From Psilocybe cubensis (Eukaryota), in NCBI GenBank assembly GCA_017499595.2, contig CM039009.1, positions 1-64,000 on the forward strand: DNA of 64,000 bases, given 5' to 3'. Every line of letters starts with the position of its first letter. Within the stretch, counting starts at the first letter, position 1. Positions 1 to 20,923 of the stretch are shown one piece after another. The position numbers and the translations under genes are program-made. A model generated the notes under the pieces. The model ran no database searches. It saw only the letters and a list, made by a program, of their open reading frames with translations, and was not told the DNA's origin.

Positions 1-130
1 CCCTAAACCCTAAACCCTAAACCCTAAACCCTAAACCCTAAACCCTAAACCCTAAACCCTAAACCCTAAACCCTAAACCCTAAACCCTAAACCCTAAACC
101 CTAAACCCTAAACCCTAACCCTAAACCCTA
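1..130 (+). repeat. Terminal telomere (CCCTAAA)n = (TTTAGGG)n on the minus strand
   Basis: About 17 near-perfect CCCTAAA units from base 1, C-rich strand 5'->3', as expected at a left chromosome end. Confidence 0.97.
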
Positions 131-723
131 AACCTAAACCTAAACCCTAAACCCTAAACCCTAAGCCCTAACCTAACCCCAACCCTAAGCTAACTAAGTC
201 TAACCTTAGTAGGAAGTAAGGTAGGCGTGTGAACTTCCGAAAGGCATGTGATTGTGAAGGGCCGGATCTAATTTAGTACATGGGAAAAGTTACTTAGTAC
301 CTCGGGAAAAGTTCCTTAGTACCGTGGAAACATTTTTGATGGACCGGATCATGAACTGTCCAATTAAGATTCACAACAATCAATCAATTGATTGTTAGGT
401 AAGGACCCAGGTAAGCTATTTATACTCTTGACATGAGAATATTCCCATGTCACGGTTACTCGGAGCCACGTAACCAGAGTATTTTATATCCATGTGATTC
501 ACATCACAGTCAATAACCCACGATGTCAAAGAACAAAAGTGTTGGATCCACTTTTGACAGGTTACCATGTGCCACATCGACCCGTGACACTCTGTTCATC
601 AGAGATCTGTCTAACTTGACAATAAACATTGACAGATTTGTGATAGTCGGTAAGATACATGACAGCTGCGCAGCATCACTTCACGCGCTGTCATCGGATG
701 TTCCAGAACATTCCTTCTAAGAA

Positions 724-1719
724 TAGCCACTGAAGAGTCTATAAAGACGAAAGGGCTGGCTGCTGATAACAATCAACAGCCCTCAAGTACTCGTCCTCTC
801 CCAAACTCCTGCCGCTTGTGCCTTCCCAACTCATCCGGGAGCCCTTTCGTCACTGATCTTGCCCTTGACTCGGGGACGTTTCATCGACATGTTGGCTGCC
901 TCACGGCAAGCGGGGCCCTTTTTCTTTCACTCGCTCACGCCTTCTATGTTGGGTTACGGAGGTCATACAAACTCGTTTTAGTCTAGCTGCGGGGTTATCC
1001 AGCTATGATGACTTTGTAATTCGAGGGCGCGCAGTTCTTCAATGGGTATGGACATCAGGTGAGAGTACACTGGGGGTTGTCAGGACCAGCTCTGCTGGAT
1101 ACGCTCCTGGCAAGTCGGTTGCAGCCGGCGACACTACCGAATTGCTGGGACGTCCTAAAGCTTGTGGGTACCGCCGACCGCTGGAAACAGCCTAGGCACC
1201 GGTGGCGACCGGGTATGGTAACAATCCCCAAGATTCAGCGAAAGCTGGAATGGATAATCAGCAGCGAATCCGTAACGGTCACGCCGACGGAAGCGTTCAA
1301 CGACTAGGTGGTAGTGGGGTCTTCGGATCTTAAGATATAGTCTTGGGAGTGGGGAAACCCACATCTGGTATCTAAACCGCGCCTCGCTGCTTACGAGGAC
1401 GGCCCGAAGTCCAGAACCGCTTAAAACGCGGGTGACCCGGCCTCCCCTTAGTAAAGGGAGTTAACACAAGGATGGACAAATAGTTCGTCGCCGGAAATGA
1501 ACCTGTGGCTGTAATGGCTGATGTGGCGCCCCTTGGTAAAGGGCTTAAAGGGTATTAGCCTGCCATGTCCAATGGCATGAGAGTGTCCCTTGGTAAAGGA
1601 CTTAATAGGCAATAGCCTGTTCTTTTGTCATGAGCGGTATGTAGTGATCGTTTGCCTGTACGGTAGCGCCCATTGCTTGCACTGGTCCACGCCCGTAAAA
1701 AATCACGAGCCGCTGGCCT
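724..1719 (+). ncRNA. Hammerhead ribozyme split by a group I intron (exon parts 724-783 and 1713-1719)
   Basis: tagcca-CTGAAGA-gtct(ataa)agac-GAAA-gggctg...cagcccT | 929-nt insert | Ctggc. Joining the exons gives the same sequence as the intact copy at 6064-6130. Confidence 0.9.
784..1712 (+). ncRNA. Group I self-splicing intron, IC1-like, 929 nt
   Basis: 5' exon ends in U783 and the intron ends in G1712. P1: acagcccU-ca (776-785) pairs tgGgggttgt (1071-1080) with a U783.G1073 wobble, extended by gtactc/gagtac. P aattgctggg 1140-1149; Q aatcagcagc 1256-1265; R gttcaacgacta 1295-1306; S aagatatagtc 1332-1342. P3 cactacc/ggtagtg; P7 gacta/tagtc; P8 with UUCG loop; P9 gtggg-GAAA-cccac; P5abc with a GAAA loop. 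Confidence 0.93.
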
Positions 1720-1824
1720 TCTTTCCATTTAACTCACAGTTTAAACAAGTCGCTCGCACCTCGCTTCGCTCGGTGCTCGCTCCCCCCCTAAACCCAACGA
1801 CTTTGCTATTACCCAACAGCTACT

Positions 1825-2980
1825 ATGTCTTCCACTTACTCTGCTGCCTTCTCTCGTGCCATGTCCCCCACCCTGGACGCACTCACCCAGGCTGTCGTCA
1901 ACAACACAGTTTTTGGCGTCAACGACGAAGCTGGCCGCCACAACGCCCTCATCGACGAGTTGGCCACTGTCGTCATCAAGAAAATAGCTGAGTGCCGCTC
2001 CATTGACCAGATTGTAGACTGCGTCTTTTTTGACTATCGTGCTGCCCTTAGGGAGTTTCTCCTCAACCTCGCATCGTGGTGCGATAAGAGGGAAACAGTC
2101 AAGGCTAGCCTCGAGCGCCTTGAACTTGCCGTTAGCGCAGGCAACACCCCCAATCGCCTTCGGGTGAAGGCTCCCGAGTTCCAACTTACGAAGGAATTCG
2201 CGGATGCCGGGTCAGCGGAAGCTCTTCGAGTTTCCTCTACGTTCTCCACCGCTCGTGATGTCTTCCAAAAGGCAATCAACGACGGCGCCATTCAGGCGAA
2301 AAAGGACGAACTGGCCTTTTGGGATGATAAATGCGCACTCAATAACTGTTATGAAGCTGCTGCCCTCATCGTTAAGACAACTTACGATGATCGCAAATCC
2401 AGCTATAAGCTCCCCGTTTTCTCTACAGACAACAAGGGAGTTCGTCGAATAACAGATTGGGTAGTGTCACCGCAGAAGAAGGCTGAATGCAGCGCATTGC
2501 AAACCATTTTGCCAGCCATCTTCTCTCATATCAAACAGATTGTCAACTTGCGCCACCGCGCTTTGGCAATCAAGATTGAGAAAAAGCGGTCGACTGCGGC
2601 AACAGCCGATGTCGAGATGGCCGATGCGACCAAACCAGGTCCATCGATTCAATCCCTTATTGATAAGGGCTTGAATGCACGTCTCAAGAAGCTCAACCTT
2701 GGATCTGTGGGCAAGAAGGCAAGTTCTCGTAACCCTTCACCCATAATTCTGGATACTAATTACTATTCTAACTACCCAGACTTTGTCTGGCCAGAATTCG
2801 TCCAAGGCTCCTCAACCTCAGGCCAAGAAAGCTGGCCCTTCGAAATTCAAACCCTCGTCGACGCCTTCGCAGAAGAAGCCCCAAACCAAGGCTTCCAACA
2901 AGGTCGACAACAAGAAGAAAGGGAAGGGGAGAGCTCCCGTCAAGAACGATCCAAAGGGAAAGGGAAAGGCAAGAGCCTAG
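1825..2980 (+). CDS. Predicted spliced ORF1 (join 1825-2718, 2780-2980), ~364 aa with a Lys-rich C-terminus
   Basis: Removing the 61-nt GC-AG intron joins codon 298 in frame to TLSGQNSSKAPQPQAKK...KGKGKARA*. Confidence 0.7.
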
Positions 2981-5355
2981 ACGCGCGGTCTAATGTAGTA
3001 CCTTTTACGTCGGTAAGACCCGCCTTCCCCAACTCTATTCCTGACGATATACTCACCATGACTAAAACAGACGCAGTTTCTTTTGTACACTTACATACGC
3101 CGATCTCATTCTTGTTGGCTGGCCAGTATCGTAGTAGTGTACACTGTAGTCCTGGTGTGGTGGTCCCTGTAGATATAGCAAATGATTTGTCACTCGGACT
3201 CAATTATATGTTTTTTACTCTACCTTCTCAAAGTCTGATCATGCAAGCATGGAATGATTTTCAACGAAGAATAAGATGGCGTATCTATTTTTTGTTTAAG
3301 GAAGGCATGAACAAACCTTTTGATCCAGATTACGGAGTAAGCTCAAAAAAGAAAGAGAAACCTCCAGTATTACCGCAATACATGGAACTTGGCCTTTCGA
3401 TGGGACGTCGGTACGTGCAACGCACGATCGCAAGTATCCCGGAAGAAGCCCTTACGGAGATGCGAAAGCACGCGTTCTCTCCTAAAAGGGACAAGATCCG
3501 TAAGTTTCTTATCGATAACAACTATGTTATTACGATGACAGATAAGAATCTTGGCCTCGCGGTGTCTGAACGCGACTGGATATTAAGGAATGAGCTCAAT
3601 CTTCTTGAAGATGAACGTAACTATGAAGAGTTAGAATTCGAAGTTGCGCAAGAAGTAATGAAGAGCAAAATGATCCAGATGCAAACTCTTGCACGTACCG
3701 TCGAAGATGAACATCTGTTTCTATTTGAACTTGGGTTGTCTCGATTCTTTCTATCGAATGTACCGGAAGACGGATCATCGTTCAAGTATCCTCAATTTCA
3801 TGGTATACCTAAAATCCACAAAAAACCTACTGGATTTAGGCCCATAATTCCGTGTCACTCTGTAGTATTTAATCCTGCAGCCAAGTTTGTATCAAAAGAG
3901 CTTAAGCCGATTATTAAATCGACTCCTTCAATCATTCACGGAACGAAGGATCTCTTTACGAGATTAAGCCAATTGCGTATAGACCCCAAACGACAATGGT
4001 ATTTTGTCACCGGGGATGTAGTTGCTTTCTATCCCAATATTCCGTTGGACTTGTGCATCGAAATCGTTTGTAATATGTACGAGGAATGGTTACTCAACGC
4101 TTCGGAAGAAAACACTGCATTAGCCCATATTAATCCAAATTCGTTAGAGAATAACTTGGTTAAATTGGGCATCTTTAAACGTGCTATCGAGATTGGCAAT
4201 ACGCAATTGATAACACAACATGGGTCTAGATATTTTAGACAAAAAAATGGCCTCGCAATGGGCGTCGCGGATTCTCCGGACCTTGCTAACCTCTTTGGAG
4301 CCCATTTTGAAATAAAATCAAAAATCTTAGACCACCCAAACGTGGCCTTCTATGGAAGGTACATCGACGATTGTTTCGCAATTGTTTACGCCGAGTCCGA
4401 AGCACTTGCACTTAATCTTATTAAAGAAACAATAAAGTTCGATGGTTGTGTTATCGAATGGGCTGTTTCCTCGTCGGGATGTCAATTTCTCGATGCTTTC
4501 ATATTCAAGGAGTCTGGAAAACTTCATTGGAAGCCATTTGTCAAGACAGGAAACAACCGAGAACGAGTTCCATGGGTATCACATCATCCTTTGGACGTCA
4601 AACGTGGCGTCTACATTGGAGAGTTATCCAGGTTAGCCGTGCTATGTAGTACCAAGGAAATCTACATCGGAGCAATTAGAGACCTTAACGCTCTCTATTT
4701 GATGCGCGGTTATCCCGAAAACCTAGTCATGTCTTGGTGTAAGAAGAATATACAAGAACGTTGGGAAAAGCGATTCGCTTTACGAGTCGCAGAGCACGAC
4801 GAATCCATTCTTGTACTTAAAACCAGATTTGATCAGGTATGGAATTGGTTTTCAGCTGCTGAACTTGGAAAAACTGTTACCGAGTACTGGTCGGCATGGT
4901 ATGAACATGCCGAGAAAGGTTTGTATAGTGCAGACTCGTCCAGACCCCTTATCAAACCAGATCCAAATTACGTTCACGACCTCGATGATGTTCGCCCGGA
5001 GCTGTTCACACAGATCCTCGTGGACGGAGAAACTGAGTTCGTACCGGATTTGAGGAAGATAGGACTACTCGGAAGTCGTTGGATAGTATCGCGAAAACGC
5101 AATACTAATCTTTTCGACCTTGCAAATGTGTGGAAGAAAACAGTCTTTCGTAAACTGGATGAAGACATCGCTGAAAAAGGTGGTGTTGTTCCCGAAACTC
5201 AAAACGTTAATGAAACTTATCATTCTGCTTTAGTTGAAGCTGCTGAACAGATAAGTATCGAAAGTGATAACGAGATAATACTTCATAGACGTTCAATCTC
5301 ACAAGAGAGGGAACATCCAGAATTCGGCAGAATATCCAAATCTTACAACCGATGA
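1825..5355 (+). CDS. Penelope-like reverse transcriptase polyprotein (ORF1 region plus RT, no endonuclease), 1176 aa
   Basis: Motifs TDKNLG, GIPKIHK..FRPII, VTGDVVAFYPNIP, QKNGLAMG..SP.LANLF, YGRYIDD, QFLD and the thumb SHHP..VKRG..GELSRL. No GIY-YIG motif follows. Confidence 0.95.
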   Translation: MSSTYSAAFSRAMSPTLDALTQAVVNNTVFGVNDEAGRHNALIDELATVVIKKIAECRSIDQIVDCVFFDYRAALREFLLNLASWCDKRETVKASLERLELAVSAGNTPNRLRVKAPEFQLTKEFADAGSAEALRVSSTFSTARDVFQKAINDGAIQAKKDELAFWDDKCALNNCYEAAALIVKTTYDDRKSSYKLPVFSTDNKGVRRITDWVVSPQKKAECSALQTILPAIFSHIKQIVNLRHRALAIKIEKKRSTAATADVEMADATKPGPSIQSLIDKGLNARLKKLNLGSVGKKASSRNPSPIILDTNYYSNYPDFVWPEFVQGSSTSGQESWPFEIQTLVDAFAEEAPNQGFQQGRQQEEREGESSRQERSKGKGKGKSLDARSNVVPFTSVRPAFPNSIPDDILTMTKTDAVSFVHLHTPISFLLAGQYRSSVHCSPGVVVPVDIANDLSLGLNYMFFTLPSQSLIMQAWNDFQRRIRWRIYFLFKEGMNKPFDPDYGVSSKKKEKPPVLPQYMELGLSMGRRYVQRTIASIPEEALTEMRKHAFSPKRDKIRKFLIDNNYVITMTDKNLGLAVSERDWILRNELNLLEDERNYEELEFEVAQEVMKSKMIQMQTLARTVEDEHLFLFELGLSRFFLSNVPEDGSSFKYPQFHGIPKIHKKPTGFRPIIPCHSVVFNPAAKFVSKELKPIIKSTPSIIHGTKDLFTRLSQLRIDPKRQWYFVTGDVVAFYPNIPLDLCIEIVCNMYEEWLLNASEENTALAHINPNSLENNLVKLGIFKRAIEIGNTQLITQHGSRYFRQKNGLAMGVADSPDLANLFGAHFEIKSKILDHPNVAFYGRYIDDCFAIVYAESEALALNLIKETIKFDGCVIEWAVSSSGCQFLDAFIFKESGKLHWKPFVKTGNNRERVPWVSHHPLDVKRGVYIGELSRLAVLCSTKEIYIGAIRDLNALYLMRGYPENLVMSWCKKNIQERWEKRFALRVAEHDESILVLKTRFDQVWNWFSAAELGKTVTEYWSAWYEHAEKGLYSADSSRPLIKPDPNYVHDLDDVRPELFTQILVDGETEFVPDLRKIGLLGSRWIVSRKRNTNLFDLANVWKKTVFRKLDEDIAEKGGVVPETQNVNETYHSALVEAAEQISIESDNEIILHRRSISQEREHPEFGRISKSYNR
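2719..2779 (+). other. Putative spliceosomal GC-AG intron within the PLE ORF (also 7924-7984 and 17511-17571)
   Basis: AAG|GCAAGT donor, CTAAC/CTAAT branch-like motif, CCAG acceptor, 61 nt long. Conserved in all three full copies. Confidence 0.72.
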
Positions 5356-6063
5356 AAAGAATACTAGCGCGTAAGGCGTAAAGCATTAGAAAAAAACCCT
5401 AACCGTAAGTATTCCTTGCTACAAAGTAACAAACATCTACTTACAAGCAACACATTGGATTAAATAGCTAAACCTAAACCTAAACCCTAAACCCTAAACC
5501 CTAAGCCCTAACCTAACCCCAACCCTAAGCTAACTAAGTCTAACCTTAGTAGGAAGTAAGGTAGGCGTGTGAACTTCCGAAAGGCATGTGATTGTGAAGG
5601 GCCGGATCTAATTTAGTACATGGGAAAAGTTACTTAGTACCTCGGGAAAAGTTCCTTAGTACCGTGGAAACATTTTTGATGGACCGGATCATGAACTGTC
5701 CAATTAAGATTCACAACAATCAATCAATTGATTGTTAGGTAAGGACCCAGGTAAGCTATTTATACTCTTGACATGAGAATATTCCCATGTCACGGTTACT
5801 CGGAGCCACGTAACCAGAGTATTTTATATCCATGTGATTCACATCACAGTCAATAACCCACGATGTCAAAGAACAAAAGTGTTGGATCCACTTTTGACAG
5901 GTTACCATGTGCCACATCGACCCGTGACACTCTGTTCATCAGAGATCTGTCTAACTTGACAATAAACATTGACAGATTTGTGATAGTCGGTAAGATACAT
6001 GACAGCTGCGCAGCATCACTTCACGCGCTGTCATCGGATGTTCCAGAACATTCCTTCTAAGAA

Positions 6064-6130
6064 TAGCCACTGAAGAGTCTATAAAGACGAAAGGGCTGGC
6101 TGCTGATAACAATCAACAGCCCTCTGGCCT
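6064..6130 (+). ncRNA. Type I hammerhead ribozyme, intact; predicted cleavage after C6124
   Basis: Stem I gcca/tggc, core CTGAAGA, stem II gtct/agac, GAAA, stem III gggctg/cagccc, CUC cleavage triplet. Confidence 0.92.
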
Positions 6131-6196
6131 TCTTTCCATTTAACTCACAGTTTAAACAAGTCGCTCGCACCTCGCTTCGCTCGGTGCTCGCTCCCA

Positions 6197-6283
6197 CCCT
6201 AACCCTAAACCCTAAACCCTAAACCCTAAACCCTAAACCCTAAACCCCCTAAAAACCCTAAACCCTAAACCCTAAACCCTAAC
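6197..6283 (+). repeat. Interstitial telomeric tract between PLE units
   Basis: CCCTAAA repeats with irregular units (ccccctaaaaa). Confidence 0.9.
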
Positions 6284-6858
6284 CTAACCCCAACCCTAAC
6301 CTAACCCCAACCCTAAGCTAACTAAGTCTAACCTTAGTAGGAAGTAAGGTAGGCGTGTGAACTTCCGAACGGCATGTGATTGTGAAGGGCCGGATCTAAT
6401 TTAGTACATGGGAAAAGTTACTTAGTACTTCGGGAAAAGTTCCTTAGTACCGTGGAAACATTTTTGATGGACCGGATCATGAACTGTCCAATTAAGATTC
6501 ACAACAATCAATCATTCTATTGTTTGATTGTTAGGTAAGGACCCAGGTAAGTTATTTATACTCTAGACATGTGAATATTCCCATGTCGCGGTTACTCGGA
6601 GCCACGTAACCAGAGTAATCTATATCCATGTGATTCACATCACAGTCAATAACCCACGATGTCAAAGAACAAAAGTGTTGGATCCACTTTTGACAGGTTA
6701 CCATGTGCCACATCGACCCGTGACACTCTGTTCATCAGAGACCTGTCTAACTTGACAATAAACATTGACAGATTTGTGATAGTCGGTAAGATACATGACA
6801 GCTGCGCAGCATCACTTCACGCGCTGTCATCGGATGTCTAGAACATTCCTTCTAAGAA

Positions 6859-6925
6859 TAGCCACTGAAGAGTCTATAAAGACGAAAGGGCTGGTTGTTG
6901 GGATCCCCCAACAGCCCTCTGGCTA
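6859..6925 (+). ncRNA. Type I hammerhead ribozyme, intact; cleavage after C6919
   Basis: 6-bp stem I tagcca/tggcta with the full core. Confidence 0.93.
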
Positions 6926-7029
6926 CTTTCCATTTAACTCCCAGTTTAAACTAGTCGCTCGCACCTCGCTTCGCTCGGTGCTCGCTCCCCCCCTAAACCC
7001 AACGACTTTGCTATTATCCATCAGCCACT

Positions 7030-10000
7030 ATGTCATCTCAATACTCTGCTGCTTTCTCTCGTGCCATGTCCCCCACCCTGGACGCACTCACCCAGGCCGT
7101 CGTCAACAACACCGTTTTCGGCGTCAACGATGAAGCAGGCCGCCATAACGCTCTGATCGACGAGCTGGCCACTGTGGTCATCAAAAAAATAGCTGAGTGC
7201 CGCTCCGTTGACCAAGTCATAGACTGCGTCTTTTTTGACTATCGTGCTGCCCTTAGGGAGTTTCTCCTCAACCTCGCATCGTGGTGCGATAAGAGGGAAA
7301 CAGTCAAGGCTAGCCTCGAGCGCCTTGAATCTGCCGTTAGCGCAGGCAACACGCCCAATCGCCTTAAGGTGAAGGCACCCGAGTTCCAACTTACGAAGGA
7401 ATTCGCGGATGCCGGGTCAGCGGAGGCTCTTCGAGTCTCCACTACGTTCTCTACCGCTCGTGACGCCTTCCAAAAGGCAATTAACGACGGCGCCATTCAG
7501 GCGAAAAAGGACGAGCTGACTTTTTGGGATGATAAATGCGCACTCAACTCTTGCTACGAAGCTGCTGCCCTCATCGTTAAGGCAACTTACGATGATCGCA
7601 AATCCAGCTACAAGCTCCCTGTTTTCTCTACAGATAACAAGGGAGTTCGACGTATAGCAGAGTGGGTAGTGTCTCCGCAAAAGAAAGCCGAATGCAGTGC
7701 GCTGCAAACCATACTGCCGGCGATCTTTTCTCACATCAAACAAATTGTCAACATGCGCCACCGCGCTTTGGCAATTAAGATTGAGAAAAAGCGGACGACT
7801 GCGGCAACAGCCGATGTCGAGATGGCCGACGCGACCAAACCAGGTCCGTCGATTCAATCCCTTATTGATAAGGGCTTGAATGCACGTCTCAAGAAGCTCA
7901 ACCTTGGATCTGTGGGCAAGAAGGCAAGTTTTCGTAACCCTTCACCCATAATTCTGGATACTAATTACTACTCTAATTACCCAGACTTTGTCTGGCCAGA
8001 ATTCGTCCAAGGCTCCTCAACCTCAGGCCAAGAAAGCTGGCCCTTCGAAACCCAAGTCGTCGTCGACGCCTTCGCAACGCAAGCCTCAAACCAAGGCTTC
8101 CAACAAGGTCGACAACAAGAAGAAAGGGAAGGGGAGAGCTCCCGTCAAGAACGATCCAAAGGGAAAGGGAAAGGCAAGAGCCTAGATGCGCGGTCTAATG
8201 TAGTACCTTTTACGTCGGTGAGACCCGCCTTCCCCAACTCTATTCCTGACGATATACTCACCATGACTAAAACAGACGCAGTTTCTTTCGTACACTTACA
8301 TACTCCAATATCATTCTTGTTGGCTGGCCAGTATCGTAGTAGTGTACATTGTAGTCCTGGTGTTTCTGTCCCTGTTGATGTAGCAAACGATCTCTCTCTC
8401 GGACTTAATTATATGTTTTTCACTCTGCCTTCTAAAAGTCTGATCATGCAAGCATGGAATGATTTCCAACGAAGAATAAGATGGCGTATCTATTTTTTGT
8501 TTAAGGAAGGCATGAATAAACCTTTTGATCCAGATTATGGAGTAAGCTCAAAAAAGAAAGAGAAACCTCCTGTATTACCGCAATATATGGAACTTGGCCT
8601 TTCGATGGGACGTCGGTACGTGCAACGCACGATCGCAAGTATCCCGGAAGAAGCCCTTACGGAGATGCGAAAGCACGCGTTCTCTCCTAAAAGGGACAAG
8701 ATCCGTAAGTTTCTTATCGATAACAACTATGTTATTACGATGACAGATAAGAATCTTGGCCTCGCGGTGTCTGAACGCGACTGGATATTAAGGAATGAGC
8801 TCAATCTTCTTGAAGATGAACGTAATTACGAAGAGTTAGAATTCGAAGTTGCGCAAGAAGTTATGAAGAGCAAAATGATTCAGATGCAAACGCTCGCACG
8901 TACTGTCGAAGATGAACATCTGTTTCTATTTGAACTTGGGTTGTCTCGATTCTTTCTATCGAATGTACCGGAAGACGGATCATCGTTCAAGTATCCTCAA
9001 TTTCATGGTATACCTAAAATCCACAAGAAACCTACTGGATTTAGGCCCATAATTCCGTGTCACTCTGTAGTATTTAATCCTGCAGCCAAGTTTGTATCAA
9101 AAGAGCTTAAGCCGATTATTAAATCGACTCCTTCAATCATACACGGAACGAAGGATCTCTTTACGAGATTAAGCCAATTGCGTATAGACTCCAAAAGACA
9201 ATGGTATTTTGTCACTGGAGATGTAGTTGCTTTCTATCCCAATATTCCGTTGGACTTGTGCATCGAAATCGTTTGTAGTATGTACGAGGAATGGTTACTC
9301 AACGCTTCGGAAGAAAACACTGCATTAGCCCATATTAATCCAAATTCGTTAGAGAATAACTTGGTTAAATTGGGCATCTTTAAACGTGCTATCGAGATTG
9401 GCAATACGCAATTGATAACACAACATGGGTCTAGATATTTTAGACAAAAAAATGGCCTCGCAATGGGCGTCGCGGATTCTCCGGACCTTGCTAACCTCTT
9501 TGGAGCCCATTTTGAAATAAAGTCAAAAATCTTAGACCACCCAAACGTGGCCTTCTATGGAAGGTACATCGACGATTGTTTCGCAATTGTTTACGCCGAG
9601 TCCGAAGCACTTGCACTTAATCTTATTAAAGAAACAATAAAGTTCGATGGTTGTGTTATCGAATGGGCTGTTTCCTCGTCGGGATGTCAATTTCTCGATG
9701 CTTTCATATTCAAGGAGTCTGGAAAACTTCATTGGAAGCCTTTTGTCAAGACAGGAAACAACCGAGAACGAGTTCCATGGGTATCACATCATCCTTTGGA
9801 CGTCAAACGTGGCGTCTACATTGGAGAGTTATCCAGGTTAGCCGTGCTATGTAGTACCAAGGAAATCTACATCGGAGCAATTAGAGACCTTAACGCTCTC
9901 TATTTGATGCACGGTTATCCCGAAAACCTAGTCATATCTTGGTGTAAGAAGAATATACAAGAACGTTGGGAAAAGCGATTCGCTTTACGAGTCGCAGAGC

Positions 10001-10560
10001 ACGACGAATCCATTCTTGTACTTAAAACCAGATTTGATCAGGTATGGAATTGGTTTTCAGCTGCTGAACTTGGAAAAACTGTTACCGAGTACTGGTCGGC
10101 ATGGTATGAACATGCCGAGAAAGGTTTGTATAGTGCAGACTCGTCCAGACCCCTTATCAAACCAGATCCAAATTACGTTCACGACCTCGATGATGTTCGC
10201 CCGGAGCTGTTCACACAGATCCTCGTGGACGGAGAAACTGAGTTCGTACCGGATTTGAGGAAGATAGGACTACTCGGAAGTCGTTGGATAGTATCGCGAA
10301 AACGCAATACTAATCTTTTCGACCTTGCAAATGTGTGGAAGAAAACAGTCTTTCGTAAACTGGATGAAGACATCGCTGAAAAAGGTGGTGTTGTTCCCGA
10401 AACTCAAAACGTTAATGAAACTTATCATTCTGCTTTAGTTGAAGCTGCTGAGCAGATAAGTATCGAAAGTGATAACGAGATAATACTTCATAGACGTTCA
10501 ATCTCACAAGAGAGGGAACATCCAGAATTTGGCAGAATATCCAAATCTTACAACCGATGA
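7030..10560 (+). CDS. Penelope-like RT polyprotein, copy B, 1176 aa
   Basis: Same RT motifs as copy A; uninterrupted ORF. Confidence 0.95.
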   Translation: MSSQYSAAFSRAMSPTLDALTQAVVNNTVFGVNDEAGRHNALIDELATVVIKKIAECRSVDQVIDCVFFDYRAALREFLLNLASWCDKRETVKASLERLESAVSAGNTPNRLKVKAPEFQLTKEFADAGSAEALRVSTTFSTARDAFQKAINDGAIQAKKDELTFWDDKCALNSCYEAAALIVKATYDDRKSSYKLPVFSTDNKGVRRIAEWVVSPQKKAECSALQTILPAIFSHIKQIVNMRHRALAIKIEKKRTTAATADVEMADATKPGPSIQSLIDKGLNARLKKLNLGSVGKKASFRNPSPIILDTNYYSNYPDFVWPEFVQGSSTSGQESWPFETQVVVDAFATQASNQGFQQGRQQEEREGESSRQERSKGKGKGKSLDARSNVVPFTSVRPAFPNSIPDDILTMTKTDAVSFVHLHTPISFLLAGQYRSSVHCSPGVSVPVDVANDLSLGLNYMFFTLPSKSLIMQAWNDFQRRIRWRIYFLFKEGMNKPFDPDYGVSSKKKEKPPVLPQYMELGLSMGRRYVQRTIASIPEEALTEMRKHAFSPKRDKIRKFLIDNNYVITMTDKNLGLAVSERDWILRNELNLLEDERNYEELEFEVAQEVMKSKMIQMQTLARTVEDEHLFLFELGLSRFFLSNVPEDGSSFKYPQFHGIPKIHKKPTGFRPIIPCHSVVFNPAAKFVSKELKPIIKSTPSIIHGTKDLFTRLSQLRIDSKRQWYFVTGDVVAFYPNIPLDLCIEIVCSMYEEWLLNASEENTALAHINPNSLENNLVKLGIFKRAIEIGNTQLITQHGSRYFRQKNGLAMGVADSPDLANLFGAHFEIKSKILDHPNVAFYGRYIDDCFAIVYAESEALALNLIKETIKFDGCVIEWAVSSSGCQFLDAFIFKESGKLHWKPFVKTGNNRERVPWVSHHPLDVKRGVYIGELSRLAVLCSTKEIYIGAIRDLNALYLMHGYPENLVISWCKKNIQERWEKRFALRVAEHDESILVLKTRFDQVWNWFSAAELGKTVTEYWSAWYEHAEKGLYSADSSRPLIKPDPNYVHDLDDVRPELFTQILVDGETEFVPDLRKIGLLGSRWIVSRKRNTNLFDLANVWKKTVFRKLDEDIAEKGGVVPETQNVNETYHSALVEAAEQISIESDNEIILHRRSISQEREHPEFGRISKSYNR

Positions 10561-11276
10561 AAAGAATACTAGCGCTTAAGGCGTAAAGCATTAGAAAAAA
10601 AACCCTAACCGTAAGTATTCCTTGCTATAAAGTAACAAACATCTACTTACAAGCAACACATTGGATTGAATAGCTAAACCTAAACCTAAACCCTAAACCC
10701 TAAACCCTAAACCCTAACCTAACCCCAACCCTAAGCTAACTAAGTCTAACCTTAGTAGGAAGTAAGGTAGGCGTGTGAACTTCCGAACGGCATGTGATTG
10801 TGAAGGGCCGGATCTAATTTAGTACATGGGAAAAGTTACTTAGTACTTCGGGAAAAGTTCCTTAGTACCGTGGAAACATTTTTGATGGACCGGATCATGA
10901 ACTGTCCAATTAAGATTCACAACAATCAATCATTCTATTGTTTGATTGTTAGGTAAGGACCCAGGTAAGTTATTTATACTCTAGACATGTGAATATTCCC
11001 ATGTCGCGGTTACTCGGAGCCACGTAACCAGAGTAATCTATATCCATGTGATTCACATCACAGTCAATAACCCACGATGTCAAAGAACAAAAGTGTTGGA
11101 TCCACTTTTGACAGGTTACCATGTGCCACATCGACCCGTGACACTCTGTTCATCAGAGACCTGTCTAACTTGACAATAAACATTGACAGATTTGTGATAG
11201 TCGGTAAGATACATGACAGCTGCGCAGCATCACTTCACGCGCTGTCATCGGATGTCTAGAACATTCCTTCTAAGAA

Positions 11277-11343
11277 TAGCCACTGAAGAGTCTATAAAGA
11301 CGAAAGGGCTGGTTGTTGGGATCCCCCAACAGCCCTCTGGCTA
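11277..11343 (+). ncRNA. Type I hammerhead ribozyme, intact
   Basis: Matches 6859-6925. Confidence 0.92.
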
Positions 11344-11408
11344 CTTTCCATTTAACTCCCAGTTTAAACTAGTCGCTCGCACCTCGCTTCGCTCGGTGCT
11401 CGCTCCCC

Positions 11409-11446
11409 CCCTAAACCCTAAACCCTAAACCCTAAACCCTAAACCC
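11409..11446 (+). repeat. Interstitial telomeric tract capping the 5'-truncated copy C
   Basis: About 5 CCCTAAA units joined directly to mid-ORF sequence cgcgactgg. Confidence 0.9.
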
Positions 11447-14073
11447 GCGACTGGATATTAAGGAATGAGCTCAATCTTCTTGAAGATGAACGTAACTATG
11501 AAGAGTTAGAATTCGAAGTTGCGCAAGAAGTAATGAAGAGCAAAATGATCCAGATGCAAACTCTTGCACGTACCGTCGAAGATGAACATCTGTTTCTATT
11601 TGAACTTGGGTTGTCTCGATTCTTTCTATCGAATGTACCGGAAGACGGATCATCGTTCAAGTATCCTCAATTTCATGGTATACCTAAAATCCACAAGAAA
11701 CCTACTGGATTTAGGCCCATAATTCCGTGTCACTCTGTAGTATTTAATCCTGCAGCCAAGTTTGTATCAAAAGAGCTTAAGCCGATTATTAAATCGACTC
11801 CTTCAATCATTCACGGAACGAAGGATCTCTTTACGAGATTAAGCCAATTGCGTATAGACCCCAAACGACAATGGTATTTTGTCACCGGGGATGTAGTTGC
11901 TTTCTATCCCAATATTCCGTTGGACTTGTGCATCGAAATCGTTTGTAGTATGTACGAGGAATGGTTACTCAATGCTTCGGAAGAAAACACTGCATTAGCC
12001 CATATTAATCCAAATTCGTTAGAGAATAACTTGGTTAAATTGGGCATCTTTAAACGTGCTATCGAGATTGGCAATACGCAATTGATAACACAACATGGGT
12101 CTAGATATTTTAGACAAAAAAATGGCCTCGCAATGGGCGTCGCGGATTCTCCGGACCTTGCTAACCTCTTTGGAGCCCATTTTGAAATAAAGTCAAAAAT
12201 CTTAGACCACCCTAATGTGGCCTTCTATGGAAGGTACATCGACGATTGTTTTGCAATTGTTTACGCCGAGTCCGAAGCACTTGCACTTAATTTAATTAAA
12301 GAAACAATAAAGTTCGATGGTTGTGTTATCGAATGGGCTGTTTCCTCGTCGGGATGTCAATTTCTCGATGCTTTCATATTCAAGGAGTCTGGAAAACTTC
12401 ATTGGAAGCCTTTTGTCAAGACAGGAAACAACCGAGAACGAGTTCCATGGGTATCACATCATCCTTTAGACGTCAAACGTGGCGTTTACATTGGAGAGTT
12501 ATCCAGGTTAGCCGTGCTATGTAGTACCAAGGAAATCTACATTGGAGCAATTAGAGACCTTAACGCTCTCTATTTGATGCGCGGTTATCCCGAAAACCTA
12601 GTCATGTCTTGGTGTAAGAAGAATATACAAGAACGTTGGGAAAAGCGATTCGCTTTACGAATCGCAGAGCACGACGAATCCATTCTTGTACTTAAAACCA
12701 GGTTTGATCAGGTATGGAATTGGTTTTCAGCTGCTGAACTTGGAAAAACTGTTACCGAGTACTGGTCGGCATGGTATGAACATGCCGAGAAAGGTCTGTA
12801 TAGTGTAGACTCGTCCAGACCCCTTATCAAACCAGATCCAAATTACGTTCACGACCTCGATGATGTTCGCCCGGAGCTGTTCACACAGATCCTCGTGGAC
12901 GGAGAAACTGAGTTCGTACCGGATTTGAGGAAGATAGGACTACTCGGAAGTCGTTGGATAGTATCGCGAAAGCGCAATACTAATCTTTTCGACCTTGCAA
13001 ATGTGTGGAAGAAAACAGTTTTTCGTAAACTGGATGAAGACATTGCCGAAAAAGGTGGTGTTGTTCCCGAAACTCAAAACGTTAATGAAACTTATCATTC
13101 TGCTCTAGTTGAAGCTGCTGAACAGATAAGTATCGAAAGCGATAACGAGATAATACTTCATAGACGTTCAATCTCACAAGAGAGGGAACATCCAGAATTC
13201 GGCAGAATATCCAAATCTTACAACCGATGAAAAGAATACTAGCGCTTAAGGCGTAAAGCATTAGAAAAAAACCCTAACCGTAAGTATTCATTGCTATAAA
13301 GTAACAAACATCTACTTACAAGCAACACATTGGATTAAATAGCTAAACCTAAACCTAAACCCTAAACCCTAAGCCCTAACCTAACCCCAACCCTAAGCTA
13401 ACTAAGTCTAACCTTAGTAGGAAGTAAGGTAGGCGTGTGAACTTCCGAACGGCATGTGATTGTGAAGGGCCGGATCTAATTTAGTACATGGGAAAAGTTA
13501 CTTAGTACTTCGGGAAAAGTTCCTTAGTACCGTGGAAACATTTTTGATGGACCGGATCATGAACTGTCCAATTAAGATTCACAACAATCAATCAATTGAT
13601 TGTTAGGTAAGGACCCAGGTAAGCTATTTATACTCTTGACATGTGAATATTCCCATGTCGCGGTTACTCGGAGCCACGTAACCAGAGTAATCTATATCCA
13701 TGTGATTCACATCACAGTCAATAACCCACGATGTCAAAGAACAAAAGTGTTGGATCCACTTTTGACAGGTTACCATGTGCCACATTGACCCGTGACACTC
13801 TGTTCATCAGAGACCTGTCTAACTTGACAATAAACATTGACAGATTTGTGATAGTCGGTAAGATACATGACAGCTGCACAGCATCACTTCACGCGCTGTC
13901 ATCGGATGTCTAGAACATTCCTTCTAAGAATAGCCACTGAAGAGTCTATAAAGACGAAAGGGCTGGTTGTTGGTACCCCCCAACAGCCCTCTGGCCTTCT
14001 TTCCATTTAACTCACAGTTTAAACAAGTCGCTCGCACCTCGCTTCGCTCGGTGCTCGCTCCCCCCCTAAACCC
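11446..14073 (+). mobile_element. PLE copy C, 5'-truncated (RT core to 13230, 3' UTR, terminal repeat)
   Basis: Starts within the ORF at the RDWILRN codons. The residual ORF 11533-13230 keeps YIDD. Confidence 0.9.
13931..13997 (+). ncRNA. Type I hammerhead ribozyme, intact
   Basis: Same core; distal stem III variant ttgg/ccaa. Confidence 0.9.
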
Positions 14074-14105
14074 TAAACCCTAAACCCTAAACCCTAAACC
14101 CTAAA

Positions 14106-14200
14106 CCCCCCAACAGCCCTCTGGCTTCTTTCCATTTTAACTCCCAGTTTAAACTAGTCGCTCGCACCTCGCTTCGCTCGGTGCTCGCTCCCCCCCTAAA
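14106..14200 (+). mobile_element. Mini PLE 3'-end fragment (~95 bp) between telomeric tracts
   Basis: cccccaacagccctc^tggc...gctcgctccccccctaaa only. Confidence 0.85.
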
Positions 14201-14925
14201 CCTAAACCCTAAACCCTAAACCCTAAGCCCTAACCTAACCCCAACCCTAAGCTAACTAAGTCTAACCTTAGTAGGAAGTAAGGTAGGCGTGTGAACTTCC
14301 GAACGGCATGTGATTGTGAAGGGCCGGATCTAATTTAGTACATGGGAAAAGTTACTTAGTACCTCGGGAAAAGTTCCTTAGTACCGTGGAAACATTTTTG
14401 ATGGACCAGATCATGAACTGTCCAATTAAGATTCACAACAATCAATCAATTGATTGTTAGGTAAAGACCCAGGTAAGCTATTTATACTCTAGACATGTGA
14501 ATATTCCCATGTCGCAGTTACTTGGAGCCACGTAACCAGAGTACTCTATATCCATGTGATTCACATCACAGTCAATAACCCACGATGTCAAAGAACAAAA
14601 GTGTTGGATCCATTTTTGACAGGTTACCATGTGCCACACTGACCCGTGACACTCTGTTCATCAGAGACCTGTCTAACTTGACAATAAACATTGACAGATT
14701 TGTGATAGTCGGTAAGATACATGACAGCTGCGCAGCATCACTTCACGCGCTGTCATCGGATGTCTAGAACATTCCTTCTAAGAATAGCCACTGAAGAGTC
14801 TATAAAGACGAAAGGGCTGGTTGTTGGGATCCCCCAACAGCCCTCTGGCTTCTTTCCATTTTAACTCCCAGTTTAAACTAGTCGCTCGCACCTCGCTTCG
14901 CTCGGTGCTCGCTCCCCCCCTAAAC
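14197..14925 (+). mobile_element. Solo terminal repeat (5'-truncated PLE) with an intact hammerhead at 14785-14851
   Basis: Repeat unit without ORF; begins at the element's internal telomere-like tract. Confidence 0.87.
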
Positions 14926-15576
14926 CTAAACCCTAAACCCTAAACCCTAAGCCCTAACCTAACCCCAACCCTAAGCTAACTAAGTCTAACCTTAGTAGGA
15001 AGTAAGGTAGGCGTGTGAACTTCCGAACGGCATGTGATTGTGAAGGGCCGGATCTAATTTAGTACATGGGAAAAGTTACTTAGTACCTCGGGAAAAGTTC
15101 CTTAGTACCGTGGAAACATTTTTGATGGACCGGATCATGAACTGTCCAATTAAGATTCACAACAATCAATCATTCTATTTTTTGATTGTTAGGTAAGGAC
15201 CCAGGTAAGCTATTTATACTCTTGACATGAGAATATTCCCATGTCGCGGTTACTCGGAGCCATGTAACCAGAGTATTCTATATCCATGTGATTCACATCA
15301 CAGTCAATAACCCACGATGTCAAAGAACAAAAGTGTTGGATCCACTTTTGACAGGTTACCATGTGCCACATCGACCCGTGACACTCTGTTCATCAGAAAC
15401 CTGTCTAACTTGACAATAAACATTGACAGATTTGTGATAGTCGGTAAGATACATGACAGCTGCGCAGCATCACTTCACGCGCTGTCATCGGATGTCTAGA
15501 ACATTCCTTCTAAGAATAGCCACTGAAGAGTCTATAAAGACGAAAGGGCTGGCCGTTTGTACCCCCAAACAGCCCT

Positions 15577-16505
15577 CAAGTACTCGTCCTCTCCCAAACT
15601 CCTGCCGCTTGTGCCTTCCCAACTCATCCGGGAGCCCTTTCGTCACTGATCTTGCCCTTGACTCGGGGACGTTTCATCGACATGTTGGCTGCCTCACGGC
15701 AAGCGGGGCCCTTTTTCTTTCACTCGCTCACGCCTTCTATGTTGGGTTACGGAGGTCATACAAACTCGTTTTAGTCTAGCTGCGGGGATATCCAGCTATG
15801 ATGACTTTGTAATTCGAGGGCGCGCAGTTCTTCAATGGGTATGGACATCAGGTGAGAGTACACTGGGGGTTGTCAGGACCAGCTCTGCTGGATACGCTCC
15901 TGGCAAGTCGGTTGCAGCCGGCGACACTACCGAATTGCTGGGACGTCCTAAAGCTTGTGGGTACCGCCGACCGCTGGAAACAGCCTAGGCACCGGTGGCG
16001 ACCGGGTATGGTAACAATCCCCAAGATTCAGCGAAAGCTGGAATGGATAATCAGCAGCGAATCCGTAACGGTCACGCCGACGGAAGCGTTCAACGACTAG
16101 GTGGTAGTGGGGTCTTCGGATCTTAAGATATAGTCTTGGGAGTGGGGAAACCCACATCTGGTATCTAAACCGCGCCTCGCTGCTTACGAGGACGGCCCGA
16201 AGTCCAGAACCGCTTAAAACGCGGGTGACCCGGCCTCCCCTTAGTAAAGGGAGTTAACACAAGGATGGACAAATAGTTCGTCGCCGGAAATGAACCTGTG
16301 GCTGTAATGGCTGATGTGGCGCCCCTTGGTAAAGGGCTTAAAGGGTATTAGCCTGCCATGTCCAATGGCATGAGAGTGTCCCTTGGTAAAGGACTTAATA
16401 GGCAATAGCCTGCTCTTTTGTCATGAGCGGTATGTAGTGATCGTTTGCCTGTACGGTAGCGCCCATTGCTTGCACTGGTCCACGCCCGTAAAAAATCACG
16501 AGCCG
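15577..16505 (+). ncRNA. Group I intron, second copy, 929 nt, splitting the hammerhead that starts at 15517
   Basis: cagcccT|caagtac...gagccG|ctggc. Nearly identical to 784-1712 (two substitutions noticed by eye). Confidence 0.93.
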
Positions 16506-16616
16506 CTGGCTTCTTTCCATTTAACTCACAGTTTAAACAAGTCGCTCGCACCTCGCTTCGCTCGGTGCTCGCTCCCACCCTAAACCACTCGACTTTGCTA
16601 TTACCCAACAGCTACT

Positions 16617-19600
16617 ATGTCTTCCACTTACTCTGCTGCCTTCTCTCGTGCCATGTCCCCCACCCTGGACGCACTCACCCAGGCTGTCGTCAACAATACA
16701 GTCTTTGGCGTCAACGACGAAGCTGGCCGCCACAACGCCCTCATCGACGAGTTGGCCACTGTCGTCATCAAAAAAATAGCTGAGTGCCGCTCCATTGACC
16801 AGATCGTAGACTGCGTCTTTTTTGACTATCGTGCTGCCCTTAGGGAGTTTCTCCTCAACCTCGCATCGTGGTGCGACAAGAGGGAAACAGTCAAGGCTAG
16901 CCTTGAGCGCCTTGAACTTGCCGTTAGCGCAGGCAACACCCCCAATCGCCTTCGGGTGAAGGCTCCCGAGTTCCAACTCACGAAGGAATTCACGGATGCC
17001 GGGTCAGCGGAGGCTCTTCGAGTCTCCTCTACGTTCTCCACCGCTCGTGACGTCTTCCAAAAGGCGATTAACGACGGCGCCATCCAGGCGAAAAAGGACG
17101 AACTGGCCTTTTGGGATGATAAATGCGCACTCAATAACTGTTATGAAGCTGCTGCCCTCATCGTTAAGACAACTTACGATGATCGCAAATCCAGCTATAA
17201 GCTCCCCGTTTTCTCTACAGACAACAAGGGAGTTCGTCGAATAACAGATTGGATAGTGTCACCGCAGAAGAAGGCTGAATGCAGCGCATTGCAAACCATT
17301 TTGCCAGCCATCTTCTCTCATATCAAACAGATTGTCAACTTGCGCCACCGCGCTTTGGCAATCAAGATTGAGAAAAAGCGGTCGACTGCGGCAACAGCCG
17401 ATGTCGAGATGGCCGATGCGACCAAACCAGGTCCATCGATTCAATCCCTTATTGATAAGGGCTTGAATGCACGTCTCAAGAAGCTCAACCTTGGATCTGT
17501 GGGCAAGAAGGCAAGTTCTCGTAACCCTTCACCCATAATTTTGGATACTAATTACTATTCTAATTACCCAGACTTTGTCTGGCCAGAATTCGTCCAAGGC
17601 TCCTCAACCTCAGGCCAAGAAAGCTGGCCCTTCGAAACCCAAGTCCTCGTCGACGCCTTCGCAGAGGAAGCCCCAAACCAAGGCTTCCAACAAGGTCGAC
17701 AACAAGAAGAAAGGGAAGGGGAGAGCTCCCGTCAAGAACAATCCAAAGGGAAAGGGAAAGGCAAGAGCCTAGACGCGCGGTCTAATGTAGTACCTTTTAC
17801 GTCGGTAAGACCCGCCTTCCCCAACTCTATTCCTGACGATATACTCACCATGACTAAAACAGACGCAGTTTCTTTTGTACACTTACATACGCCGATCTCA
17901 TTCTTGTTGGCTGGCCAGTATCGTAGTAGTGTACATTGTAGTCCTGGTGTGGTGGTCCCTGTAGATATAGCAAATGATTTGTCGCTCGGACTCAATTATA
18001 TGTTTTTTACTCTGCCTTCTCAAAGTCTGATCATGCAAGCATGGAACGATTTTCAACGAAGAATAAGATGGCGTATCTATTTTTTGTTTAAGGAAGGCAT
18101 GAACAAACCTTTTGATCCAGATTATGGAGTAAGCTCTAAGAAAAAGGAGAAACCTCCAGTATTACCGCAATATATGGAACTTGGCCTTTCGATGGGACGT
18201 CGGTACGTGCAACGCACGATCGCAAGTATCCCGGAAGAAGCCCTTACGGAGATGCGAAAGCACGCGTTCTCTCCTAAAAGGGACAAGATCCGTAAGTTTC
18301 TTATCGATAACAACTATGTTATTACGATGACAGATAAGAATCTTGGCCTCGCGGTGTCTGAACGCGACTGGATATTAAGGAATGAGCTCAATCTTCTTGA
18401 AGATGAACGTAACTACGAAGAGTTAGAATTTGAAGTTGCGCAAGAAGTTATGAAGAGCAAAATGATCCAGATGCAAACTCTCGCACATACCGTCGAAGAT
18501 GAACATCTGTTTCTTTATGAACTTGGGTTGTCTCGATTCTTTCTATCGAATATACCGGAAGACGGATCATCGTTCAAGTATCCTCAATTTCATGGTATAC
18601 CTAAAATCCACAAGAAACCTACTGGATTTAGGCCCATAATTCCGTGTCACTCTGTAGTATTTAATCCTGCAGCCAAGTTCGTATCAAAAGAGCTTAAGCC
18701 GATTATTAAATCGACTCCTTCAATCATACACGGAACGAAGGATCTCTTTACGAGATTAAGCCAATTGCGTATAGACTCCAAAAGACAATGGTATTTTGTC
18801 ACTGGAGATGTAGTTGCTTTCTATCCCAATATCCCGTTGGACTCGTGCATCGAAATCGTTTGTAGTATGTACGAGGAATGGTTACTCAACACTTCGGAAG
18901 AAAACACTGCATTAGCCCATATTAAGCCAAATTCGTTAGAGAATAACTTGATTAAATTGGGCATCTTTAAACGTGCTATCGAGATTGGCAATACGCAATT
19001 GATAACACAACATGGGTCTAGATATTTTAGACAAAAAAATGGCCTCGCAATGGGCGTCGCGGATTCTCCGGACCTTGCTAACCTCTTTGGAGCCCATTTT
19101 GAAATAAAGTCAAAAATCTTAGACCACCCAAACGTGGCCTTCTACGGAAGGTACATCGACGATTGTTTCGCAATTGTTTACGCCGAGTCCGAAACACTTG
19201 CACTTAATCTTATTAAAGAAACAATAAAGTTCGATGGTTGTGTTATCGAATGGGCTGTTTCCTCGTCGGGATGTCAATTTCTCGATGCTTTCATATTCAA
19301 GGAGTCTGGAAAACTTCATTGGAAGCCATTTGTCAAGACAGGAAACAACCGAGAACGAGTTCCATGGGTATCACATCATCCTTTGGACGTCAAACGTGGC
19401 GTTTACATTGGAGAGTTATCCAGGTTAGCCGTGCTATGTAGTACCAAGGAAATCTACATCGGAGCAATTAGAGACCTTAACGCTCTCTATTTGATGCGCG
19501 GTTATCCCGAAAACCTAGTCATGTCTTGGTGTAAGAAGAATATACAAGAACGTTGGGAAAAGCGATTTGCTTTACGAGTCGCAGAGCACGACGAATCCAT

Positions 19601-20856: not shown

Positions 20857-20923
20857 TAGCCACTGAAGAGTCTATAAAGACGAAAGGGCTGGCCGTTTGT
20901 ACCCCCAAACAGCCCTCTGGCTT
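20857..20923 (+). ncRNA. Type I hammerhead ribozyme, intact
   Basis: Full core; distal stem III tttg/caaa. Confidence 0.9.

Follow-up and report, generated by a model that had tools for sequence, protein, structure and literature searches.

A group I intron inside the hammerhead ribozyme of a telomeric retroelement of Psilocybe cubensis, with relatives in metagenome elements

Introduction

In the passages cited here of two reviews (PMC3679873 and PMC8395846), all known nuclear group I introns are said to interrupt rRNA genes. The window analyzed in this study, i.e., the first 64,000 nucleotides (nt) of contig CM039009.1 of the Psilocybe cubensis assembly GCA_017499595.2 (forward strand), opens with a telomere and an array of retroelement copies, and in two of these copies a group I intron lies within the hammerhead ribozyme of the element. 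Does such an intron serve the element as a regulatory device, or does it live on the element as a parasite? An earlier note on this DNA had favored the former idea: self-splicing would gate self-cleavage, and the 5' end of the retroelement RNA would be processed only after the intron is removed. We consider instead, with a probability of roughly 0.7, that the intron belongs to a mobile lineage of group I introns living as parasites on the RNA of these retroelements, and that the reverse transcriptase (RT) of the element copies it into DNA. What can be read from the sequences themselves is the identity of the intron, of the hammerhead and of their junction, a contrast in divergence between the intron and its flanks, a pattern of presence and absence within the array, and the occurrence of relatives.

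Results

A group I intron divides the hammerhead

A search with Rfam cmscan at the gathering threshold returned Intron_gpI (RF00028) at positions 987-1364 with 73.0 bits (threshold, 50 bits; E = 1.3e-16). The earlier note had described a group I intron inside the hammerhead of a telomeric retroelement, and this covariance-model match, together with a complete parse of the hammerhead, bears the description out. The note had overlooked a second intron-bearing copy at 15577-16505, and the model check with RF00028 that it had proposed came out above the threshold in both intron copies. The features concerned are the following.

726-783, + strand: 5' portion of the hammerhead (copy A, distal), parsed identically in seven intact copies; helix I 5' strand GCCA, 726-729; core CUGAAGA (C3-A9), 730-736; helix II, 737-748; G12-A14, 749-751; helix III, 752-783, in which A15.1 (752) pairs with U16.1 (U783); C17 follows at 1713
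784-1712, + strand: group I intron of 929 nt whose last base is G1712 (omega G), delimited by means of the intact junctions
776-792, + strand: P1 5' strand, made of the last 8 exon nt, which end in the splice-site U783, and the first 9 intron nt
793-1062, + strand: insertion in L1 (the P1 loop), ~270 nt; both ends are conserved in intron 1 of the metagenome locus L072
1063-1080, + strand: P1 3' strand with the internal guide sequence; G1073 pairs with U783
1081-1362, + strand: catalytic core and near periphery (Rfam alignment, RNAalifold); P2, 1081-1109; P2.1, ~1113-1128; P3, 1132-1138/1310-1316; P4, 1142-1148/1258-1264; P5, 1153-1155/1252-1254, with a ~95-nt P5 extension, then P6; P7, ~1302-1306/1338-1342 (assigned by hand from the Rfam alignment); P8, 1317-1330 (UUCG loop); P9, 1349-1362 (GAAA loop)
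1363-1712, + strand: long P9 extension, in which hairpins of the form CCCUUGGUAAAGG recur, followed by the omega G
1713-1795, + strand: end of the terminal repeat after the hammerhead; C17 (1713), helix I 3' strand UGGC (1714-1717), then ~80 nt to ...CCCTAAACC
15519-16510, + strand: second interrupted hammerhead, in copy D, with the intron at 15577-16505 (929 nt); Rfam, 70.9 bits

The intron of copy A is inserted between U16.1 and C17 of the hammerhead, and the upstream exon ends at U783. These limits, as well as the terminal G that had been claimed for the 929-nt insert, are confirmed by the intact copies, which place a 3' terminal G in both introns (G1712 and G16505). The boundary is ambiguous by 1 nt, i.e., 785-1713 fits the sequence equally well. 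The ligated junction CAGCCCT/CTGGC occurred nine times in the window, and all nine occurrences were exact in a search that allowed up to one mismatch; the expected number was 0.19, and 0 of 100 shuffles reached nine. A complete hammerhead 5' part precedes seven of the nine, and the other two (14114 and 22068) lie in fragments, which is the count of seven full hammerheads and two fragments reported in the earlier note.

The exon strand upstream of the splice site is complementary to a guide sequence in the intron. A scan of the first 500 intron positions gave a sole 7/7 match, at intron position 290. The guide (1071-1080) pairs with A776-A785, with U783 opposite G1073 as the U.G splice pair that had been claimed, and the helix extends through the pairing of G787-C792 with G1063-C1068, forming a P1 of 16 bp directly upstream of P2. 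The earlier observation that the guide and helix III of the hammerhead use the same exon strand also holds, with energies of -24.4 kcal/mol for P1 (RNAduplex) and -11.5 kcal/mol for the helix III hairpin. Across five family members, RNAalifold found compensatory changes in 28 of the 67 predicted pairs, and P3, P8 and P9 each showed several pair types; P7 was invariant among the five and is thus uninformative on covariation. An open reading frame (ORF) scan of the intron found none longer than 108 codons and no homing endonuclease gene, and there were no other Rfam matches inside the intron. With P2, P2.1, the P5 extension and the long P9 extension, the intron looks IC1-like in its architecture. 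One hairpin of the P9 extension (CCCUUGGUAAAGG... then ...AUUAGCC) is duplicated, at 1523-1561 and 1587-1618. Judged by its model score, predicted fold and exact junctions, the insert is a genuine group I intron, and it is probably still catalytically competent.

The hammerhead of the terminal repeat

The type I hammerhead core (CUGAAGA / GAA / A-U / C) is present in all seven intact copies in the window, and the two interrupted copies hold these same parts, divided between the two sides of the intron. The distal part of helix III covaries among the window copies when read by hand (UGAU/AUCA, UUGGG/CCCAA, UUUG/CAAA). A scan of metagenome contigs with an alignment of 16 proteins yielded 80 loci of related elements, and a parser that requires the core and three helices found 44 coding-strand matches in 39 of them. 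Since the parser itself demands pairing, the weight lies on the control counts, which were 0 on the opposite strand and 0 in five shuffles. Among the parsed hammerheads, helix I is represented by 26 distinct pairs and the 3' strand of helix III by 28 distinct sequences. On these grounds, the terminal repeat of the element is read as containing a complete type I hammerhead.

The Rfam hammerhead models, which the earlier note had also recommended as a check, gave a different result: no model reached its threshold in the window, the best being RAGATH-1-hammerhead with 29.1 bits against 56.3 (E = 0.92), and at locus L072 Hammerhead_3 scored 24.5 bits against a threshold of 48.5. Minimum free energy folding of the intact hammerhead region did not return the hammerhead fold, as is expected for a fold with tertiary contacts that lie outside the energy model, and this folding was not used. 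The hammerhead of a Penelope-like element (PLE) of Serpula lacrymans, a related fungal one, is described in the cited part of PMC4209133 as cleaving in vitro.

The element and its telomeric array

The retroelement copies form a head-to-tail array of ~22 kb in + orientation, with the 5' end of the element facing the chromosome tip. It is composed as follows.

1-180, + strand: terminal telomere tract (CCCTAA)n, read directly; its final ~53 nt (128-180) are degenerate repeats belonging to the terminal repeat unit of the element
128-6205, + strand: copy A, full-length, with an intact 1176-aa ORF
181-725, + strand: distal (5') terminal repeat (pLTR) of copy A, portion upstream of the hammerhead (self-BLAST)
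1825-5355, + strand: element ORF, 1176 aa, RT with a YIDD motif
5468-6205, + strand: proximal (3') terminal repeat of copy A, with an intron-free, intact hammerhead at 6066-6128
6258-22188, + strand: rest of the array, i.e., copy B, truncated copy C, a solo repeat, two end fragments, copy D and a truncated copy
6258-11418, + strand: copy B, full-length and intron-free, with an intact 1176-aa ORF
14927-20998, + strand: copy D, full-length, with an intact 1176-aa ORF

Besides the full copies, the array thus contains two 5'-truncated copies, one solo terminal repeat and two end fragments of ~95 nt. The units are set apart by short telomere tracts, and each closes with ...CCCTAAACC, followed by (CCCTAA)n. 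The terminal repeat is a ~740-nt direct repeat found on both sides of every full copy, and its order is: degenerate telomere-like repeats, ~550 nt, the hammerhead, ~80 nt, and the end ...CCCTAAACC. The array reaches position 22188, where an inner (CCCTAA)n tract (22150-22188) closes it, and unique subtelomeric DNA begins at 22189. Because the array ends on an inner telomere tract beside unique DNA, the whole 22-kb array must have been stacked on an original telomere.

The RVT_1 domain matched a fragment of the ORF with E = 2e-6 and 28.1 bits, under the Pfam cut-off of 29.6. No other Pfam domain was found in the 1176-aa ORF, including no endonuclease domain, and a PDB search returned no relative. 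The part of the ORF searched at protein level, residues 520-1000, was 100% identical to Psilocybe cubensis proteins. The element is attached to the telomere with its 5' end outward, and its 3' end carries the reverse complement of the telomere repeats. In the parts cited here, PMC8557442 describes endonuclease-lacking, telomere-attached PLEs of the Coprina type with such a position and a telomere-complementary 3' end, and PMC4209133 describes fungal PLEs whose terminal repeats hold type I hammerheads, helix III being large and helices I and II short. With its place and orientation at the telomere, a 3' end complementary to telomere repeats, no endonuclease found and a hammerhead in the repeat, the element matches the descriptions of a Coprina-like, endonuclease-lacking PLE. 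The ORFs of copies A and D differ by 1.8%, with 47 synonymous and 15 non-synonymous codon changes, from which it follows that both lineages evolved as working elements.

Each terminal repeat opens with ~50 nt of degenerate telomere-like sequence (128-180, 5468-5520, 13335-13390 and 21290-21350). If these degenerate repeats were copied last, they would give the new chromosome tip a telomere-like, G-rich 3' end. The two ~95-nt fragments, at 14107-14202 and 22055-22157, follow internal telomere repeats, and both start at CAGCCC, i.e., 8 nt upstream of the hammerhead cleavage site and not at that site. The fragment end is discrete, and hammerhead cleavage does not account for it; it could be a transcription start, a stop of the RT at helix III, or the product of telomerase healing on a TTGGGGG-like end. 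Farther inward, in the subtelomeric region, a 721-aa ORF at 55354-57519 consists almost entirely of ankyrin repeats (Ank_2, E = 1.8e-145).

The two introns have a younger common ancestor than their flanks, and the sister repeats lack the intron

We compared the two intron-bearing copies. The introns of copies A and D differ at 2 of 929 positions (0.22%), whereas the terminal repeats of the same copies differ by 4.6% upstream of the intron and by 4.5% in the downstream stretch. The binomial probability of two or fewer intron differences at the flank rate is 6e-9. The low divergence of the intron relative to its flanks indicates that the common ancestor of the two introns is much younger than that of the flanks. 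The nearest flank differences lie 9 nt upstream and 5 nt downstream (1717) of the intron, so that the limits of the young segment match the intron to within a few bases. Selection was considered as the cause of this contrast and cannot explain it.

The comparison of the repeats within and between copies gave a second pattern. The two terminal repeats of a copy show 0 differences over ~670 nt in A, B and D alike, whereas 16-36 columns differ between the repeats of different copies. In copy A, for example, self-BLAST gave 100% identity between 128-784 and 5468-6124, and the distal repeat shows 0 differences from 5527-6195 of the proximal repeat. The identity within copies indicates that both repeats are made from one template sequence at each retrotransposition. 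This regeneration of repeats from a single template resembles that of long terminal repeat (LTR) elements, although the element is not one of them. In copies A and D, the distal repeat carries the intron and the proximal repeat carries the exact ligated junction. Since the intron is thus present in only one of two identical repeats, RNA of the same sequence must have existed both with and without the intron when the copy was made, and this requires either precise splicing or precise reverse splicing.

The distal repeat is the one synthesised last in telomere-primed reverse transcription, and locus L072 shows the same distribution of the intron, its two repeats having diverged. A template jump to a second RNA, rolling reverse transcription of a circular RNA, and an LTR-like transfer were considered as mechanisms; each explains the identical repeats, but none explains why the intron is in the distal repeat only.

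Related introns in metagenome elements

Among the 80 metagenome loci, only L072 exceeded the Rfam threshold, with two Intron_gpI matches (72.8 and 76.5 bits). When five loci were searched with reporting by E-value, L070 gave 39.6 bits (E = 7e-7; the contig end cuts the match), L052 gave 34.2 bits (E = 2.8e-5) and L064 gave 31.6 bits (E = 1.7e-4). Every related intron is located either in the interval from the hammerhead to the ORF or close to the start codon. The median distance from the hammerhead to the ATG was 104 nt over the 24 loci in which a long ORF follows the hammerhead, and the distance was 1171 nt in L052 and L064. The long distance in L055 was rejected as an insertion, because the match coordinates showed a broken ORF.

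The insert of L052 (444-1514, 1071 nt) is group-I-like and lies 4 nt past the cleavage site, in the 3' strand of helix I; comparison with intron-free sequence gives it a U at position -1 and a terminal G, and its guide matches over 6 bp. At the sub-threshold score of 34.2 bits given above, it provides a second and independent case of an intron inside a hammerhead. Intron 1 of L072, delimited against the intron-free repeat of the same locus, lies at +13 nt and likewise has a U at position -1 and a terminal G, and the intron of L064 lies at ~+60 nt. The second intron of L072 occupies the region 2844-3850, with the Rfam match (76.5 bits) at 3018-3331, between the start codon and the point where ORF homology resumes; it is apparently located within the coding sequence of this nuclear retroelement. 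A guide candidate within its P2 hairpin was dropped; the homologous guide was preferred, and with it the 5' splice site would lie elsewhere. L052 and L064 are 93% identical in their flanks and only 68-75% identical in their introns, which occupy different sites. The insertion sites cluster around the hammerhead cleavage site, which the reading proposed below does not explain.

The window intron and its relatives share the ends of L1 and a hairpin in the P9 extension. A 39-nt stretch of the P9 extension is 92% identical to that of the introns of L070 and L079, whereas the RT proteins are only ~31-32% identical; the hairpin is either strongly constrained or recently exchanged. At L079 (1045-1400), an element copy lacks its 5' part, the truncation falling within the intron that L070 also has, and is joined to unrelated DNA, as is expected if intron-containing RNA is incompletely reverse transcribed. 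Going by these shared parts and their different positions, the window intron is a member of an intron lineage and not a one-off.

The intron in other DNA sequencing runs

The intron was present in contigs of all four DNA runs examined, which come from three studies. One contig bridges both intron junctions, another bridges the 3' junction, and contigs with the intron-free junction are also present. An assembly chimera and mitochondrial contamination are ruled out by the presence of the repeat on both sides, by the two occurrences and by the bridging contigs. A contig of another run combines a helix III loop of the A type with the intron variants of the D type and the D-type deletion at 1717, and differs over 755-1743 by four other letters and one gap; it is a third combination of flank and intron. 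Contigs of another run show ~2% divergence over 1195-1753, and two variants of L1 occur within one genome. Intron variants found in another run keep or strengthen pairs, e.g., 1328 U>C turns a G.U pair of P8 into G-C.

Discussion

A mobile intron lineage as the best explanation

We propose that the home of this intron lineage would be the terminal repeat and the 5' leader of telomere-attached, endonuclease-lacking PLEs (Coprina type) of fungi. The intron would leave the element RNA by self-splicing, or would enter it by guide-directed reverse splicing at CAGCCCU/C, and the RT of the element would then copy the RNA, whether it holds the intron or lacks it, into chromosome-end DNA. In RNA with the intron, the hammerhead core would be split and P1 would occupy the 3' strand of helix III. 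Catalytic activity, mobility at the RNA level and the use of the element RT are what we infer here from sequence patterns. In a stronger form of this proposal, a complete natural retro-mobility cycle would operate, in which the excised intron reverse-splices near the hammerhead and the RT writes it to the chromosome end, in a first nuclear niche outside ribosomal DNA (rDNA); this form is tentative, and we would give it slightly less than an even chance. Insertion into the hammerhead core may additionally protect the carrier RNA from self-cleavage.

The following points weigh against a mobile lineage, or against parts of the case for it. Three of the four supporting metagenome introns score under the Rfam threshold. 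In intron 1 of L072, the homologous guide pairs with only 4 of 7 exon bases, both in the scan and by hand, and the limits of the L064 intron and of the second intron of L072 are approximate. In the window intron itself, P1 must close over a loop of 270 nt, and the P10 pairing between the guide and the 3' exon is weak, with a best duplex of -3.1 kcal/mol. Many natural introns have a weak P10. The array counts come from one chromosome end of one genome, and depths of words in contigs are not copy numbers. The assignment of the element to the Coprina type is architectural and not phylogenetic. The proposal does not explain the restriction of the intron to the distal repeat in both clean cases (A and D). 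Finally, the insert read as 785-1713 would coincide with the hammerhead cleavage site, and the low divergence of the intron could stem from gene conversion, the tract having been stopped on the left by the very divergent helix III loop; this is unlikely given the difference at 1717, only 5 nt to the right.

A gate, a dead passenger or a template jump

The alternative that survives best is the evolved gate, in which self-splicing licenses the self-cleavage of the hammerhead and so times the processing of the 5' end of the retroelement RNA. We consider it unlikely. In its favor, the core is split exactly between U16.1 and C17 and is restored by exact exon ligation, P1 and helix III compete for one strand, and the related intron of L052 also lies inside a hammerhead, in the 3' strand of helix I. 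Against this, only two of the nine complete terminal-repeat hammerheads in the array carry the intron, and a full-length copy without it (copy B) has an intact ORF. In contigs of two other runs, the depth of intron words was, as a rough measure, a few percent of that of the repeat. The related introns lie elsewhere (+4, +13 and ~+60 nt relative to the cleavage site, or close to the start codon), most of them outside the hammerhead. The intron appears to have spread recently rather than to have been fixed anciently, and the start of the telomere-joined fragments, 8 nt upstream of the cleavage site, is not one set by hammerhead cleavage. One part of the gate idea stands. Since the intron splits the core, the hammerhead can re-form only after exact exon ligation, and for the two intron-bearing copies it follows mechanically that self-cleavage is possible only once the exons are ligated. 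We read this order of splicing before cleavage as a consequence of the insertion site and not as an evolved switch; the evolved gate on 5'-end processing is not supported as it had been stated, and the pattern as a whole is more like that of a mobile parasite living on the element than that of a device for regulation.

The intron could also be a dead passenger that entered once, is no longer catalytic, and owes its presence and absence to DNA recombination or gene conversion within the array. The weak P10 and the long L1 would agree with such a history, and ectopic conversion is plausible for two intron copies that lie 15 kb apart in one array. We regard it as improbable, because the core is intact and scores well above the threshold in both copies, and the variants found elsewhere, such as 1328 U>C, keep or strengthen pairs. 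Furthermore, the flanks differ at a rate like that of synonymous sites (4.5%) while the introns differ by 0.22%, a conversion tract would need to stop no more than 9 nt beyond the intron to one side and 5 nt to the other, and the exact ligated junction occurs, in two lineages, in repeats that otherwise show 0 differences from the intron-bearing ones.

Very improbable, finally, is a template jump without reverse splicing, in which the RT, at a hammerhead-cleaved end, jumped to a free intron RNA and then to another cleaved end: the insert read as 785-1713 does fall exactly at the C17/U1.1 cleavage site, and template jumping is reported for relatives of this RT class in the cited part of PMC11167929, but the insert would then start one base inside the intron and end one base past the omega G, the 8-bp pairing between guide and exon would be a coincidence, as would the U at -1 and the terminal G, and the L052 intron and intron 1 of L072 sit 4 and 13 nt off the cleavage site and still have the U at -1 and the terminal G.

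Comparison with known systems

The preferred reading, a mobile intron lineage carried by the retroelement, places the window intron beside several known systems. It resembles the nuclear rDNA group I introns (Tetrahymena large subunit; IC1 and IE) in its fold, the U.G pair of P1, the terminal G and the peripheral extensions, and large non-coding insertions in peripheral loops, P1 included, are described for nuclear group I introns in the cited part of PMC3679873. Unlike them, it lies in a telomeric retroelement, whose RNA is reverse transcribed in the life cycle of that element. The hammerhead is like those of fungal and protist PLEs: it is of type I, combines a large helix III with short helices I and II, and sits in the terminal repeat of a telomere-associated, endonuclease-lacking element. 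Unlike those, its core is interrupted by another ribozyme, and the descriptions cited from PMC4209133 and PMC8557442 contain no such interruption.

Two nested ribozymes, the folding of one affecting the other, are also found in the twin-ribozyme introns (GIR1/GIR2 of Didymium and Naegleria) according to the part cited of PMC4167309. In those rDNA introns, it is the small ribozyme that is nested within the group I intron, and it serves the mRNA of a homing endonuclease; in the window the nesting is reversed, with a group I intron inside a small self-cleaving ribozyme, in a retroelement. The window intron is not itself a twin-ribozyme intron by what it contains, i.e., no further Rfam match and no ORF over 108 codons.

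The pattern is also like that proposed for spread by reverse splicing, with a guide-directed site, exact boundaries, ectopic sites of short complementarity and no co-conversion of the flanks. As stated in the cited part of PMC3679873, reverse splicing itself has been shown in vitro and in cells, whereas the reverse-transcription and integration steps of the pathway in rDNA are without experimental evidence. Unlike in the rDNA case, the target RNA here is already a template for an RT, which would supply the former step. Mobile group II introns are similar in that a self-splicing intron spreads in a manner coupled to an RT; they have an RT of their own and insert into DNA, whereas the ORF-less group I intron would borrow that of the element. 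Our literature search, in agreement with the earlier note, found no description of this arrangement and no group I intron in such an element, although a mention in the founding Coprina paper or in supplements is possible.

Implications

The window intron breaks the stated rule that nuclear group I introns are confined to rDNA. The divergence and the patterns of presence and absence are what a full cycle of reverse splicing and reverse transcription predicts, and an intron in an RNA that is routinely reverse transcribed would be a natural place to seek such a cycle, by which the question becomes testable. The two competing ribozyme folds on one strand provide a natural case for studies of RNA folding. 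For the biology of chromosome ends, an intron on a retroelement on a telomere would add a new layer of parasitism.

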